The notes beneath the pieces were generated by a model that worked only from the letters and a program-made list of their open reading frames with translations, made no database searches and was not told the origin of the DNA. From contig OZ252018.1 of NCBI GenBank assembly GCA_965247535.1, positions 1,013,046 to 1,077,045 of the forward strand: a stretch of DNA of 64,000 bases. Direction: 5' to 3'. This DNA comes from Dehalococcoidia bacterium. GTDB taxonomy: Bacteria; Chloroflexota; Dehalococcoidia; Lucifugimonadales; UBA2985. The position numbers and the translations under genes are program-made. Shown piece by piece: positions 18,852 through 60,312 of this stretch (position 1 is the stretch's first letter; each line of letters starts with the position of its first letter).

Positions 18852-19031
18852 GTGTTGAACAACGACGAAAGATTGGTGAAGGTACTGAGCAGCCTCTACG
18901 AGTCGGTGTCCTGCCCGGAATGCGGCACTCGGCTCAGGCTGGGCGACCTGGACTGCCCGCACTGCGGCCTGGACACGGACGAACCGTTCCGTCAATGGGC
19001 CGAGATGCTGCTTCAGAAGCTGGACGCTTAA
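18852..19031 (+). CDS. Small zinc-ribbon protein (59 aa), not in the supplied ORF track
   Basis: Own translation from GTG 18852: VLNNDERLVKVLSSLYESVSCPECGTRLRLGDLDCPHCGLDTDEPFRQWAEMLLQKLDA*. It has two CxxC pairs and a purine-rich GAGAGGA stretch just upstream. Confidence 0.5.
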   Translation: MLNNDERLVKVLSSLYESVSCPECGTRLRLGDLDCPHCGLDTDEPFRQWAEMLLQKLDA

Positions 19032-19207: not shown

Positions 19208-19426
19208 ATGCCTGGGGACATGATCAACATAGTGCAGCTGTGCAGAGAGTGCGGGTCCGAGGTGGGCAGCATCTCCGAGAAGAAGGAAAACATGATGCTG
19301 GCAACCATTGACCATGTGTGGTGTGAGCGCTGCAATGCGGTGATGCCGGCCTCCCGAGACGTTGCCGCACGGCTGAAGTCCATCGAGCGGGAGGTCGAGA
19401 CCTATCCGAGGCTGCTGCCTCAGTAG
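19208..19426 (+). CDS. Small zinc-ribbon protein (72 aa)
   Basis: MPGDMINIVQLCRECGSEV...HVWCERCNAVM has CxxC...CxxC. GGAGG lies 7 nt upstream of the ATG. Confidence 0.55.
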   Translation: MPGDMINIVQLCRECGSEVGSISEKKENMMLATIDHVWCERCNAVMPASRDVAARLKSIEREVETYPRLLPQ

Positions 19427-19639: not shown

Positions 19640-19894
19640 ATGATGCCCAATGATCCCTTCCAGCATGACCGCATGGAGTACTGGGCCGAGCGGTCGACTC
19701 ACCACACTCGCCACGGCTACAGCACCGGACACCTCAGGGCCGCTGACAAGATGTGGGAGATCATGGAGGCCACCGTCAAATACCTGACACTTCCCATCTG
19801 GTGGCCCATTGTCCAGTGGAACAAGCGAAAGAAGCGCAGGAAGCAACCCGTGGACCCGTTTGCCACGGACATATACAGGCCGCCCTTCAAGTAG
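19640..19894 (+). CDS. Hypothetical small Trp/Lys-rich protein (84 aa)
   Basis: ORF with its own promoter-like element 35 nt upstream. No recognisable family (…LPIWWPIVQWNKRKKRRKQ…). Confidence 0.4.
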   Translation: MMPNDPFQHDRMEYWAERSTHHTRHGYSTGHLRAADKMWEIMEATVKYLTLPIWWPIVQWNKRKKRRKQPVDPFATDIYRPPFK

Positions 19895-19928: not shown

Positions 19929-20276
19929 CTAGCCCAGCGCCTCCTCCAGCGTCCTCTGCGACGCACCTATCACAAGCCTGCCATCCACGCTGACCAGCGG
20001 CCTTCTGATTAGCCGCGGCTCCTGGATCATCAGCTCTAGCATCCGGCCGTCGTCAAGTTCGGAGGCGGTCAGCCCGAGATCCTTGAACGATGGGCTGTTC
20101 CAGGCAAAGGCGTCTGAGACCCTGATGCCGCCCAGAAGGACCCTCAGCTCATCCGCGTCGAATCTGTCCTTGAAAAAGTCGCGTTCCTCAAATTCTATGT
20201 TATTCTCGTGGAGCCACGCTCGCACCCTTCGGCACGTGGATCAGCGGCTCCACCAGTACAGGGTCGCCTTGGTCAT
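19929..20276 (-). CDS. ArsC/Spx/YffB-family thioredoxin-fold protein with an in-frame TGA (predicted selenocysteine, UxxC redox motif)
   Basis: The track gives only 19929..20225 (98 aa, GTG start). Reading upstream in the same frame gives ATG(20276) ACC AAG GCG ACC CTG TAC TGG TGG AGC CGC TGA(20243-20241) TCC ACG TGC, i.e. MTKATLYWWSR-U-STCRRVRAWLHENNIEFEERDF. This aligns with the LYGIKNCDTCKKARRWL N-terminus of YffB/ArsC, with U at the catalytic Cys column. GGAGG lies 8 nt before the ATG. Confidence 0.75.
20210..20251 (-). other. Candidate bacterial SECIS-like hairpin enclosing or following the UGA
   Basis: mRNA GGAG-CCGCUGAU-CCACG-UGCCGAAGGGUGCGAG-CGUGG-CUCC. CCACG/CGUGG and GGAG/CUCC pair, the UGA sits in the 5' internal loop, and the apical region is G-rich (GAAGG). 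Folded by hand only. Confidence 0.45.
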
Positions 20277-20306
20277 CTTCAAGCCTCCGTCCTGAATTTG
20301 CGTCGA

Positions 20307-20336
20307 ATTATACCGGAAGCGTCGATTCTCCCGTAA
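20307..20336 (-). promoter_or_regulatory. Promoter of the selenoprotein candidate
   Basis: The minus strand reads TTACGG, an 18-nt spacer, then a perfect TATAAT (complement of 20307-20312). This is followed about 30 nt later by GGAGG and the ATG. Confidence 0.45.
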
Positions 20337-20340
20337 GCCT

Positions 20341-20907
20341 TCACAGCCGCCGAGCGGAGCACCGCGATTCCAGGAGCTCTCGGCGGCTGATCTCCAGCCG
20401 TAGCTCAACGCCCGGGTTCGGAAGCGCGGCCGTCCCGTCGCCGAGTCGAACTATCCTTGCCGACAGCCGTTCCGCATCCACTTCAATCACGCCGACGGTG
20501 CCCAGTCGCGTCGACAGGTGATGGGGCAGCGTGGGGCTGCCTGAGTTCGCATAGACCACTCCGTCGAGCAGGGCAAGCCGCTCGTAGTGGGTGTGCCCGC
20601 TGACCAGCACGTCCACCGGGGACTCAAACCGGATGCCGGAGGTGACGTCGTGGAGCATTCCGATTCGCCAACCCTCCACGTCCAGAGTGTGGGTTGGCTT
20701 GACTCGCGGGTCGTCCAGGTCGAAGTCGTTGTTGCCGAGGGCTGCCAGCACTGGCGCGATACTCTCAAGCCAGTCCAGCACACCGGACGTAACGATGTCG
20801 CCTGCGTGGAGAATCAGCTCCACGTCCCGGAAGGCAACAGCAACCTCCGGCCAGGGCTCGCGGATGGTGGACGGCAGGTGGGTGTCCGCAATCAGCCCTA
20901 TGCGCAT
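20341..20907 (-). CDS. Metallophosphoesterase, YfcE/MJ0936-like
   Basis: MRIGLIADTHLP, HAGDIV, GNND and SGHTH are the calcineurin-like phosphoesterase motifs. 188 aa. Confidence 0.85.
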   Translation of the reverse strand: MRIGLIADTHLPSTIREPWPEVAVAFRDVELILHAGDIVTSGVLDWLESIAPVLAALGNNDFDLDDPRVKPTHTLDVEGWRIGMLHDVTSGIRFESPVDVLVSGHTHYERLALLDGVVYANSGSPTLPHHLSTRLGTVGVIEVDAERLSARIVRLGDGTAALPNPGVELRLEISRRELLESRCSARRL

Positions 20908-20970: not shown

Positions 20971-22140
20971 CTACTCCTGCGCCCGGTGTCCCTCCGCGAC
21001 CAGTCGTTCCAGGACCTCTGCCACCTTGTCCACCTCGCTGGCCGTGTTGAAGTAGTGTGTGCTGAAACGCACGCCGTCCGGGCCGTGGACGGTCCGCCCC
21101 ACGATGCTGAACCTGTTCTGCAACGCGGAGACGAGGTCCTCCGGCGGCCAGCCTTCAAGTCCGAGCGTGACCAGCCCGCACGCGGAATCCTGGTCCGTCG
21201 TGCTCAGCAGCTCACAGCCCTTGATCATGGTCGCGCGCTCGCGGAGCATGTTTCCCAGGCGCATGGCGTGCGCCTCGATGCGTTCGATGCCAATCTCCGA
21301 TACCAGCCGCAGGCTCTCGGTGAGGCCGGCTGCCAGGCCTGGGCTGTTGGAGACCAGCGAGAAGCGCCCCAATGCGCCGCGTCGGAACCCTTGCCGACCT
21401 GCCTCCAGCGCGTTGGTCGAAAACAGAGGCTCCAGCATTTCGCGCCGGTCCGGGTGAACGTACAGGGCGCCGGTGCCCACCGGTCCCATCGGCCACTTCT
21501 GGCCGGACATTGTGTAGAAGTCGCAGGCCAGGTCGGTGACGTTTACGGCGATCTGGCCGACGCTTTGCGCGCCGTCCACCAGCACTGGCACCCCGGCCGC
21601 GTGCGCCGCCGCCGTGATTTCACCGATGGGCAAGCGCAGGCCGCAGGTGAACTGAATGTGGCTTAGGCCCACCAGCTTCGTGCGTTCGGTGATCGCGGAC
21701 TTGACGAGGTCAAGCGCCTCTGCGGCCGTGGACATGGGCTGGATCGGCGCGGACGTCACGTTCACACCATTGCGTTCTGCCACGACCTTTGCGGGAGCCG
21801 TTAGCGCGGGGTGCTCGAGGTCGCAGATGAGCAGCTCGTCGCCCGGCTGCCAGTCCATGCCGTAGATGACTACGTTCACGCCCTCGCGAGTGCTGTGTGT
21901 GAGGATGACGTCGTCTTCGGAGGCGCCGAGCAGGCTGGCGGCGGCCGCAGTGGCCTCTCGATTCGCCTCCCGCGTGAGTTCGACCCCGCGGGCGCTTGCG
22001 GGTCCTATCATGGCCTCCTGCTCCAGCGTCTCCGCCACGCGGCGGAGCGCCGACGTGGGCGTTGGGCCGGCCCACCCGGTGTTCAGGTAGATTAGGTCGC
22101 GAGTGATCGGCAGGAGCTCCCTCAGCTGGTCAGTGTTCAT
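20971..22140 (-). CDS. Class-V aminotransferase-fold PLP enzyme (cysteine desulfurase / selenocysteine lyase / isopenicillin-N epimerase-like)
   Basis: I chose the start at ATG 22140 (MNTDQLRELLPITRDLIYLNTGWAGP). The PLP-lysine motif is SGQKW and the fold pattern is typical. The longer track ORF (to 22428) adds an implausible Arg/Ser-rich extension. Confidence 0.8.
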   Translation of the reverse strand: MNTDQLRELLPITRDLIYLNTGWAGPTPTSALRRVAETLEQEAMIGPASARGVELTREANREATAAAASLLGASEDDVILTHSTREGVNVVIYGMDWQPGDELLICDLEHPALTAPAKVVAERNGVNVTSAPIQPMSTAAEALDLVKSAITERTKLVGLSHIQFTCGLRLPIGEITAAAHAAGVPVLVDGAQSVGQIAVNVTDLACDFYTMSGQKWPMGPVGTGALYVHPDRREMLEPLFSTNALEAGRQGFRRGALGRFSLVSNSPGLAAGLTESLRLVSEIGIERIEAHAMRLGNMLRERATMIKGCELLSTTDQDSACGLVTLGLEGWPPEDLVSALQNRFSIVGRTVHGPDGVRFSTHYFNTASEVDKVAEVLERLVAEGHRAQE

Positions 22141-22313
22141 CTCTACCGTCCGAATAATTGAGTGCGCCGCTGCGGGGACCTTGACGCCGTGTGCGATGGC
22201 ACAAGCGGCGGTGGAAGCGGCAACCGCAGCCATTCTACCACGGAGCCGCCGGAGTGACCAATCGCCGGAGGGTGTGGATTGCCGGAGGGCGGGATAGCCG
22301 GTACACTCGCTGC

Positions 22314-23060
22314 GTGTTCCGGATACGTCACAACCTCCTCGCCGCAGAGTCGGCGGCGAGGCGCGGCCTCTTTCTGCTTGTGCTGACGGCGTTGACCGCG
22401 GGCTGTAGTGGGGATGAGCCGTCACCAACAGCGACGACCGCGGCCACGCCGACTGCCATGCCCGCGGCGACGGCTACTGCGGCCGCTCCTCAGACGCATA
22501 CCCCGTCGCCCTCGTCAACCCCACTAGCCACGCTGACGCCCGCGCCGACCGCGACCCCGACTCCTGCGCCTCCGCCGGCCGCCACTGCAACTGCGGCCTC
22601 CACGCCAACCACGACCGCAACGTCGACTCCAACAGCCACGCAGGGCGACCTCTCGCGGTTCGGGCCGCCGGACCCGGAGGCGGGAGCCGCGAGCGCGTCC
22701 GAGGCGCTGATAGCGGGGCAGGTCTTCCAGCTTGAGGTCGTAAGCACGCCTGCGGAGCGCGCCCGAGGCCTGATGGGCCAGCAGCGCATACCGGACGACT
22801 ACGCGATGCTGTTCGTGTTTGAATCCGAGCGCCGGCTCAGCTTCTGGATGAAGGGTACGCTCATTCCGCTGGACATCCTCTTCCTGGACTCGAATGGCAT
22901 GGTCGTGGACGTGCAGACGATGATCCCGCAACCCGGCGCGCCGGACAGCGAGCTGATCGTGTATACATCGGCTAGGCCGGCACGATACGCGATGGAGATG
23001 AACGCGGGACTGGCTGAGGCGCTCGGCGTGGTGCCCGGAGCGGCAGTGCTCTTCGACTAG
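22314..23060 (+). CDS. DUF192-family lipoprotein with a long Thr/Pro/Ala linker
   Basis: C-terminal FQLEVVSTPAERARGLMGQ...MLFVFE...FWMKGTLIPLDILFLDSNG is the DUF192 pattern. The lipobox is LTALTAGC. About 75 aa form a TPA-rich low-complexity region. A GTG start at 22314 is assumed. Confidence 0.7.
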   Translation: MFRIRHNLLAAESAARRGLFLLVLTALTAGCSGDEPSPTATTAATPTAMPAATATAAAPQTHTPSPSSTPLATLTPAPTATPTPAPPPAATATAASTPTTTATSTPTATQGDLSRFGPPDPEAGAASASEALIAGQVFQLEVVSTPAERARGLMGQQRIPDDYAMLFVFESERRLSFWMKGTLIPLDILFLDSNGMVVDVQTMIPQPGAPDSELIVYTSARPARYAMEMNAGLAEALGVVPGAAVLFD

Positions 23061-59077: not shown

Positions 59078-60196
59078 TGTACTCGTTCAGGACATATGAG
59101 ACAGAGGGGTCTCCGGGTGGCACTGAAGAATATACTCCATGGGAGAGTGATAGCCAAGGGACTGATGTGGGCGGTGTGTGTTGTAGTAGAGTTCGTGGTC
59201 TCTGAGAGCTGGGGTGATGTCCTGGACGGTCCAGTCGCCGTCGTAGAAGGCGTAGAACTCCTCCTTGTGGGTGCGGTGAGCTCGTTCGGCGAAGGCGTTG
59301 AGCTTGGGAGAATGAGGAGGAGTGGTGAAGAGCCGGATGCCTCGGTCTCGGCAAGCGGTCTCGAAGTCGGCCTGGAACTCTGATCCATTGTCCACCTGGA
59401 TGGCGCGTACAGGGAAGGGGCATCGTGTCTGGAGGGCGTCCAGGATGCGGGTGGCGGTGTTGGCGGTAGCACGTGAGGCTATGAGTAGGGTGTCCCATCG
59501 AGAGACGACATCCCGTGCGCTGAAGTGTTTGAGGACTACGCCTGGGAGAGGGCGGAGGTCGGTGGTGTCCAGGTGGAGGAGGTCACCGGGGGCCTTGGGG
59601 CGGTAGTCCCTTGGGGTGCGGCGTAGGGACGGCGGACGCGGCGTTTAGCGCTGGCTACACCGGGGCGTGGTGGTTCCTTCAGGACCCCGCGACGCTTGAG
59701 GTCGGCGAGTATGCGGCCGATGGTGGAGGTGGAGACCATCCATCCACGCTGTCGCAACAGGGGAGCCAGCTTGTCCTTGCCGAACCATGGCGGCTGCCGG
59801 CGCAGGTCCTCAATCGCTGTCACCAGCTGCGGGTCCCACTGGGGCGTCCGCCTGCGGTGGGGTGCACGCGACCTCGGCTCCAGACCCGGGATGCCAACCT
59901 CCCTGCGACGCCGGGCCCAGCGGTACAGAGTGGAGCGGGGTATGCCTATCACCTCAGCAGCGACTTGACCCCGCAGACCCAGCGCCTGGAATTCCCGCCA
60001 CAGGCGCAGTGCCCTCTCCCTTGCTCTCGCTTCGTCACTGACCGGCTCCGCAGTGGTTCTCGCCAGCCGGTCCGCTTGGTACAATACCCTGGGTAGCCCA
60101 ACTACCCGCATGGGGGGCCCCCTTTAGTGTTTACTCACCTCAAGGATGGCCCCTCCTTTTCGTCTTGACTAGTCTCACATGTTTCTGAACGAGAAT
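59078..60196 (-). mobile_element. IS481-family-like insertion sequence (about 1.12 kb) with a 6-bp target-site duplication
   Basis: Imperfect terminal inverted repeats: TGTACTCGTTCAGGACATATGAGAC at the left end, against GTCTCACATGTTTCTGAACGAGAAT at the right end. Direct repeat AGGACA at 59072-59077 and 60197-60202. Boundaries are good to +/-2 nt. Confidence 0.8.
59087..60111 (-). pseudogene. IS481/IS3-superfamily DDE transposase, split by a frameshift
   Basis: The N-terminal HTH part is 59536..60111 (…IPRSTLYRWARRR…). The rve core continues in another frame: YRPKAPGDLLHLDTTDL...AIQVDNGSEFQ...NAFAERAHRTHKEEF...YNTHRPHQSLG (DDE). The frames switch near 59590-59615, around a C-run (GCACCCCAAGGG). 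Confidence 0.75.
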
Positions 60197-60209
60197 AGGA
60201 CACCTCGCC

Positions 60210-60238
60210 TTGACACTCATATCTGCCTCTTGTAACAT
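60210..60238 (+). promoter_or_regulatory. Sigma70-type promoter for the thrC-like cassette
   Basis: TTGACA (60210-60215), a 17-nt spacer, then TAACAT (60233-60238). The -35 starts 8 nt after the IS target duplication. Confidence 0.5.
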
Positions 60239-60312
60239 CAAGCGCAGCTTGCGCTAGAGGCGCAGGCCATCTGCAACTGTCGGTCGGCGGGCAGCCGAGG
60301 GGGTCTCGTTTC

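Follow-up and report, generated by a model that had tools for sequence, protein, structure and literature searches.

Does an in-frame TGA codon end a gene in this Dehalococcoidia bacterium, or is it read as an amino acid? The question is raised by a gene located in a stretch of 64,000 nucleotides of its genome (contig OZ252018.1, assembly GCA_965247535.1, positions 1,013,046 to 1,077,045; hereafter, the window). On the minus strand, the positions from the ATG at 20276-20274 to the TAG at 19931-19929 form a single frame, in which the only internal stop is the TGA at 20243-20241. A sequence-only reading of the window had proposed that this codon specifies selenocysteine (Sec) at a catalytic cysteine position. 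On the basis of sequence comparisons, we consider it very probable that the region 20276-19929 is one gene, encoding a 115-residue selenoprotein of the ArsC/Spx/YffB thioredoxin-like fold. The features on which this interpretation is centered are the following:

19929..20276, minus strand: full putative selenoprotein coding sequence, 115 codons plus TAG, with ArsC/Spx fold and U12-S-T-C15 motif (translation, Pfam ArsC match, orthologous frames in four related genomes, L001-L004, and in 69 metagenomic loci)
20241..20243, minus strand: in-frame TGA, residue 12, read as selenocysteine (aligned with the Cys of homologues, with Spx Cys10, and with E. coli ArsC Cys12)
20232..20234, minus strand: TGC codon, Cys15, putative resolving cysteine of the U-x-x-C motif (columns T28 and G29 invariant in a DNA alignment of 60 sequences; corresponds to Spx Cys13)

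Translated as it stands, the frame gives MTKATLYWWSR*STCRRVRAWLHENN..., and the sequence after the in-frame stop is also given as MTKATLYWWSR*STCRRVRAWLHENNIEFEERDFF...; the read-through product is MTKATLYWWSR-U-STCRR.... When U was treated as C, this product matched the Pfam ArsC family (PF03960, gathering threshold 24 bits) with 53.3 bits, over residues 7-112 and profile positions 1-78 of 79. The proposed alignment to the N-terminus of ArsC, Spx, and YffB, with the UGA at the column of the nucleophilic cysteine, was confirmed. The mechanical list of open reading frames (ORFs), instead, places the start at GTG 20225 and yields a product of 98 aa, which covers only positions 24-78 of PF03960, with 41.5 bits. 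As the sequence-only reading had stated, this start removes the first strand of the fold and the redox motif: the 98-aa product would have neither β1, nor the initial turn of α1, nor either of the redox residues. Two elements precede the upstream ATG:

20284..20288, minus strand: Shine-Dalgarno-like GGAGG, 7 nt before ATG 20276, the same in L001-L003 and GAGG in L004
20307..20312, minus strand: TATAAT, candidate -10 box, read from the sequence and kept in L001-L004

The GGAGG had been announced at 8 nt from the ATG, and it is present, with a spacing of 7 nt. The TATAAT is also where it had been described, but a consensus promoter and terminator scan found no -35 box matching it, no complete -35/-10 pair, and no intrinsic terminator.

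It could be argued that translation does end at the UGA, with the 98 residues from GTG 20225 as the functional product and the 11 upstream codons as a leader or as non-coding DNA. Gene callers and public records do annotate products of this type (among the best 120 database relatives, at least about 110 are fragments of 89-100 aa beginning just past the TGA), and the 98-aa product is still above the Pfam threshold. However, besides the loss of β1, of the first α1 turn, and of both redox residues, the ribosome-binding site and the -10 box precede ATG 20276 and not GTG 20225, and many relatives have GTA, GCG, or GTC in place of this GTG. Furthermore, the codons upstream of the UGA are conserved as protein across 60 diverse sequences, which share the signature Y-x-W-x-[RK] with an invariant Trp and a nearly invariant Tyr, the third base of the latter changing synonymously. 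We consider this explanation highly improbable.

The TGA codon was then compared among assemblies and relatives. The TGA is present in all ten independently assembled contigs of the same species, which were obtained from several samples with both short and long reads and have at most 3 mismatches in 412 nt with respect to the window. The 659-kb contig ERZ25069191:ctg586363_50x_l, of this species, has the gene as well. The TGA is found at the same codon in four GTDB genomes (L001-L004, Dehalococcoidia or Chloroflexota metagenome-assembled genomes (MAGs), L001 coming from the complete 2.15-Mb chromosome OZ244716.1), where protein identity to the window is 68-89% and the sequence M[TA]KATLYWWSR before the TGA is kept with synonymous codon changes. 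On OZ244716.1, the proteins encoded around the gene are 85-98% identical to those of the window. A metagenome scan by family alignment returned 80 loci, and the codon count, covering the 70 parsed loci, gave TGA in 69/70 and TGC in 1/70 at the Sec column. With coding conservation of the upstream codons and the TGA in the same column in four genomes and in nearly all the metagenomic loci counted, the orthologues speak against a start at the downstream GTG. Since TGA is one base away from TGC and TGT, one could also suspect an error of sequencing or assembly, or a gene with an ancestral Cys that has recently become a pseudogene. Against this, the presence of the codon in ten out of ten same-species assemblies rules out sequencing error and polymorphism, its conservation extends to the more distant proteins and metagenomic loci just described, and the RNA hairpin linked to it covaries (see below). 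To this explanation we attribute an almost negligible probability.

The few full-length database relatives have C-[ST]-T-C-R where the window has U-S-T-C-R, and Cys is found at the U12 column in P0026, P0059, P0066, P0071, P0073, and P0117. These Cys homologues begin with the same first strand and have their Cys exactly at the TGA column. The alignment combines protein-coding conservation on both sides of the UGA with the pairing of Sec and Cys in the same column. In two full-length database entries the residue in the Sec column is W; for P0120 (L101:91-435), which is one of the two, the DNA reads TGA here, and therefore the W comes from a gene caller that used a translation table with TGA as Trp, on a short contig. 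W forms were observed in P0120 and also in P0065 and L081, and such records disguise Sec codons as tryptophans. Within the window, TGA works as a normal stop, as previously noticed: it terminates 24 of the 61 predicted genes, in several cases within 4-nt overlaps, and so the genome is not recoded.

We investigated if the mRNA around the UGA contains a bacterial selenocysteine insertion sequence (SECIS). The sequence-only reading had described GGAG/CUCC and CCACG/CGUGG stems at this position. Computational folding did return stable hairpins, in three alternative folds called A, B, and C (-30.4, -12.5, and -8.0 kcal/mol, respectively). Fold B is a CCACG/CGUGG fold of the 45 nt that follow the UGA, with z = -0.8. 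Folds A and C use the following elements:

20208..20225, minus strand: candidate bacterial SECIS (fold C), GUG(C)GAGC-GUG-GCUCCAC, 18 nt, beginning 15 nt past the UGA (covariation, fold energy, consensus fit)
20244..20253, minus strand: 5' arm of fold A (GUGGAGCCGC), which pairs with 20217-20208; clade-specific, part of the minimum-energy fold, and in competition with the SECIS hairpin

Fold C consists of 6-7 bp plus a bulge and of a (C)GUG(G) loop, which lies about 22 nt past the UGA; the first codon of this hairpin is the same GTG that gene callers use as a start. To choose between the three folds, we used an ungapped DNA alignment of 60 distinct Sec-form sequences. Only fold C is family-wide, as a 7-bp helix (alignment columns 37-43 / 49-55) closed by a 5-nt loop. 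In this helix, 90.2% of the cells are paired, vs 42-57% after shifting one arm by 1-3 columns, and compensatory changes are present in four out of seven pairs. The cells with a double change are 35, vs 3.8 in the shuffles, and none of 500 shuffles matches the observed score. RNAalifold independently recovers only the inner five pairs. All the sequences have the loop G, more than 90% have a U right after it, and 58/60 have a GU loop; the two outermost bases of the loop often pair with each other, which reduces it to a GUN triloop. The published consensus for bacterial SECIS elements places 16-37 nt between the UGA and the apical loop (PMC13188914), and fold C of the window agrees with all four conditions of that consensus. 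These results support the small hairpin 15 nt past the UGA as the element probably under selection, rather than the GGAG/CUCC and CCACG/CGUGG fold. The stems described by the sequence-only reading are those of folds A and B and are present in the minimum-energy folds, but the larger hairpin belongs to the close clade only, and covariation favors the smaller one.

As a control, we considered five Cys forms. The helix is lost in three of them (1-3/7 pairs), and a fourth keeps 6 pairs but has the loop AUUUU, without the G. The fifth, discussed below, keeps the hairpin.

Some observations weigh against the selenoprotein interpretation. First, in the window alone fold C is thermodynamically unremarkable (z = -2.0 for the 19 nt, and z = -0.9 with flanks), and it competes with two more stable folds; for the SECIS we did not accept single-sequence thermodynamics as the principal evidence and relied on covariation. 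Second, the helix of the window clade requires a one-base bulge, because its 3' arm is one base short (the protein has WLHE, not LLLQ), and therefore 9/60 sequences are unpaired in the ungapped register. Third, the Cys form L105 (L105:301-651, P0117) keeps a perfect hairpin, with 7/7 pairs, an AGUUU loop, and -8.6 kcal/mol. Its close sequence similarity to the Sec form L101 suggests that Sec was replaced by Cys only recently, and the RNA element would not have had the time to decay. Fourth, searches of the 64-kb window and of about 100 fetched loci, by tblastn with E. coli SelA/SelB/SelD and by ARAGORN and Rfam for tRNA-Sec, returned no selA, selB, selD, or tRNA-Sec. Lastly, neither a codon-usage-filtered scan of the window nor upstream extensions of the genes beside large gaps gave a candidate for a second selenoprotein gene, and the high GC content made a motif-based scan too noisy. 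Support for the Sec machinery is at the lineage level only: Dehalococcoidia MAGs are reported to be among those with the largest bacterial selenoproteomes, with 46-49 genes (PMC13326102), and SelA and SelB co-occur in most bins of sponge symbionts from various phyla (PMC5649159).

The failure to find Sec machinery in the window or in the fetched loci would also fit a read-through of the UGA without Sec, by near-cognate insertion of Trp, Cys, or Arg or by a local reassignment of the code, in which case the product would not be a selenoprotein; some gene callers indeed gave relatives a W at the Sec column. On the other hand, those W forms are translation-table artefacts, and TGA terminates 24/61 genes of the window. 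Moreover, homologues have Cys at this column, which is the catalytic position of the fold, and the downstream hairpin fits the SECIS consensus and decays in Cys forms. We regard read-through without Sec as hardly credible.

More attention is required by fold A, which could be the working SECIS in the clade of the window in place of the small hairpin. Fold A pairs a stem at 20253-20244, upstream of the UGA, with 20217-20208, and carries a small CGUGCC-GAAG-GGUGCG hairpin as a cap. It is the minimum-energy fold (z = -3.4, on 81 nt), its stem is paired 10/10 in the window, in L001-L004, and in L010, and its apical loop begins with G. However, its 5' arm lies upstream of the UGA and would presumably be inside or behind the ribosome during decoding, and its apical loop is about 10 nt past the UGA, less than the 16-37 nt of the consensus. 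In L011 the Ser codon AGC is changed to UCC, and the codon is also altered in L014 and L020; the pairs of fold A are broken in these three loci (7-9/10 pairs) without any compensating change. The wider family does not have this stem, its median pairing being 5/10, and fold A occupies the bases of the covarying hairpin. We judge a SECIS role of fold A unlikely, although less so than the alternatives considered above.

The 10-bp stem 20244-20253/20208-20217 deserves a separate mention: it encloses the UGA, uses bases of the SECIS hairpin, and has all its pairs in the closest relatives alone. The WWSR and AWLH codons could give rise to it incidentally, or it could serve this clade to control how the UGA is decoded.

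Under the selenoprotein interpretation, the UGA at 20243-20241 would be decoded as selenocysteine in the following way. With the ribosome at the UGA, the hairpin 20225-20208, starting 15 nt downstream, would sit just outside the ribosome, and its apical (C)GUG(G) loop would be the kind of element bound by SelB·GTP·Sec-tRNASec. In the protein, Sec12 would be placed at the N-terminus of helix α1, three residues ahead of Cys15, and the protein would most likely cycle between the selenol/thiol and the selenenylsulfide forms, serving as a small redox-active oxidoreductase or redox switch. The comparisons show the conserved in-frame TGA, its alignment with Cys, the covariation of the hairpin, and the fold; Sec insertion, SelB binding, and selenenylsulfide chemistry are what we infer from the sequence and its conservation.

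The structural part of this proposal was assessed on the full-length Cys homologue P0026, which is 56% identical to the window protein. Its AlphaFold model has a predicted local distance difference test (pLDDT) score of 88.5, with β1 at residues 4-8, α1 at 13-24, and the CxxC at 12-15; the CxxC is therefore predicted at the N-terminus of the helix. Foldseek searches with this model returned Spx, YffB, and uncharacterised ArsC-family proteins, with template modeling (TM) scores of about 0.8.

Among solved structures, the closest by sequence is Spx of Bacillus subtilis (PDB 1Z3E, 3GFK, 7F75; E ~1e-12, TM ~0.8). The two proteins have the CxxC switch in the same place, with Sec corresponding to Cys10 and Cys15 to Cys13, and have in common a ...LLRRP... 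segment. They differ in that the window protein has Sec for Cys10, has a two-residue gap at D51-G52, and is without the C-terminal tail (115 aa vs 131 aa). Spx G52 is important for RNA polymerase binding. The best NCBIfam match was TIGR01617 (Spx/MgsR, "arsC_related"), on which the window protein is borderline, with 70.2 vs a cut-off of 75.05; its relatives score 69-82, and P0066 reaches 81.6. The Spx-specific models NF002459 and NF009210 gave 53 vs a cut-off of 123 and 52 vs 159, respectively.

On this evidence, the protein could also be thought of as a redox-sensing regulator of the Spx type, which binds the C-terminal domain of the RNA polymerase α subunit and has a Sec/Cys switch replacing Cys/Cys, with no enzymatic role. 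The proximity of Spx by sequence and fold, the TIGR01617 scores, and the alignment of Sec with the switch residue Cys10 would agree with it. The scores far under the cut-offs of the Spx-specific models, the gap at D51-G52, and the missing tail all argue in the opposite direction, and YffB and uncharacterised ArsC-family proteins fit the fold equally well. A regulator of this kind thus appears improbable, slightly more so than a SECIS role of fold A. An extension of this idea is even more doubtful and we mention it as a speculation of low probability: the Sec-dominant branch would be a selenium-dependent transcription switch of the Spx type in marine and sponge-associated Dehalococcoidia, with the clade-specific long hairpin tuning its own synthesis to the selenium supply. 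If true, it would be the first regulator of transcription to use a selenocysteine as its sensor.

Arsenate reduction also appears unlikely. The ArsC of E. coli and of plasmid R773 has the same fold, its Cys12 corresponds to the Sec column, and the equivalent of its Arg94 is kept as R92. Arg60, Arg94, and Arg107 form the arsenate-binding triad of R773 ArsC, and the equivalents of Arg60 and Arg107 are Ala in the window protein; it is because two of the three arginines are not kept that we do not favor this activity. The motif is also different, being C/U-x-x-S in ArsC and in the marine metagenomic selenoprotein group "ArsC 1 (UxxS)" and U-x-x-C in the window protein, which scores 49.5 bits on the arsenate reductase model TIGR00014 (cut-off 106). 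YffB (PA3664, PDB 1RW1; E. coli b2471) has a similar size (114-118 aa) and fold (TM 0.84-0.86), but identity is about 25% and the score on NF008107 is 33 vs a cut-off of 121. E. coli YffB has a single Cys: the motif that the sequence-only reading had given for it, C-D-T-C, is C-D-T-I in E. coli K-12. Taken together, from the sequence we infer a small selenol/thiol-disulfide oxidoreductase or redox switch, which is neither an arsenate reductase nor Spx proper.

Selenoproteins of this kind have been known for some time. Zhang & Gladyshev 2008 reported two ArsC-type groups in the Global Ocean Sampling (GOS) data, "ArsC 1" (UxxS) and "Arsenate reductase 2" (UxxC, cd03032) (PMC2398784). The window protein shares with the second group the fold, the Sec column, and the U-x-x-C motif, and three reads of the group (JCVI_READ_1318105, _1121231, and _1095390070075; PMC2398784) carry the signature of its subfamily, Y-x-W-x-K-U-[ST]-T-C-[KR]...ERD[FI]F...SP..KK...EPRLI[RK]RP. 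With the window protein, the reads JCVI_READ_1318105 and _1095390070075 share 38% and 41% identity over 92-104 residues. The statement of the sequence-only reading that arsenate-reductase-like selenoproteins are known from marine metagenomes was right, and the subfamily of the window is itself in the 2008 list. The published group is mixed, as it lists two ArsC-fold subfamilies sharing only ~19% identity (PMC2398784, supplement file 3): unlike the window gene, most of its reads are of the NF041106 type, such as JCVI_READ_17177, which is 19% identical to the window protein. A further difference is the origin, surface-ocean reads for the GOS group and a Dehalococcoidia genome for the window gene.

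The reviews published since then name two types only, "arsenate reductase (UxxS)" and "arsenate reductase-like (UxxC, NF041106)". The latter corresponds to the NCBIfam model NF041106, "ArsC family (seleno)protein" (ArsC_rel_Se_1), which has in common with the window protein the ArsC fold and a U-x-x-C near the N-terminus. On this model, with a cut-off of 85 bits, the window protein scores 28.4 and its relatives 26-41, whereas JCVI_READ_17177 scores 116. The window gene belongs to a branch apart from NF041106, and therefore annotation pipelines do not rescue its Sec codon. Of the two GOS subfamilies, an NCBIfam selenoprotein model is available for the NF041106 type only and not for the ERDFF/EPRLIRRP type, to which the window gene belongs. 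In short, the kind of selenoprotein is already known, the subfamily of the window was sampled in 2008, and it is without a dedicated model.

The genomic neighborhood was also inspected. The gene is preceded by those of a YfcE-family phosphodiesterase (20341-20907) and of a class-V aminotransferase (20971-22140). The sequence-only reading had seen in the second, a pyridoxal phosphate enzyme of class V, a suggestive neighbor, but it scored 139 vs a cut-off of 475 for SufS and 82 vs a cut-off of 525 for SclA. The two genes are syntenic in the close clade only (L001-L004, L009, L010, and L012) and not in the wider family; the limited synteny means that the neighbor says little about function, and we rejected it as a functional clue.

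Downstream of the selenoprotein gene, on the opposite strand, two zinc-ribbon-like ORFs were observed, at 18852-19031 (plus strand, 59 aa) and 19208-19426 (plus strand, 72 aa). The close clade keeps both of them together with the selenoprotein gene, and neither showed an in-frame TGA; the first has a weak match to NF049953, "zinc ribbon-containing (seleno)protein DG" (23 bits vs a cut-off of 130). Directly downstream and convergent lies a further ORF (19640-19894, plus strand, 84 aa), which is called in public assemblies, has no Pfam or NCBIfam match, and may be spurious. At 22191-23060 (plus strand), a DUF192 protein has a long Thr/Pro/Ala-rich low-complexity segment ahead of the domain, and its start is uncertain, with 289 aa according to the ORF lister and 95 aa according to the codon-usage model. 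Lastly, an integrase-core (rve / rve_3) fragment of ~172 aa, at 59087-59605 (minus strand), adjoins the longest gene-free stretch of the window (917 nt, 59396-60312) and is probably an insertion-sequence remnant.

As the sequence-only reading had anticipated, the locus is mis-annotated by standard pipelines: public relatives are cut at the UGA, NF041106 does not cover the branch, and all the NCBI-sourced entries seen among the relatives are fragments of 89-100 residues without the active site. The marine selenoprotein group concerned has been on record since 2008, and therefore the finding corrects annotation and is not new biology. With a dedicated model, or with gene calls aware of SECIS elements, the true product would be restored in many Dehalococcoidia/SAR202 genomes, and the corrected calls would raise their selenoproteome counts by one gene. 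The biological value is modest, as this is another thioredoxin-fold U-x-x-C protein, and it fits the picture of a heavy use of selenium by marine and sponge-associated Chloroflexota.

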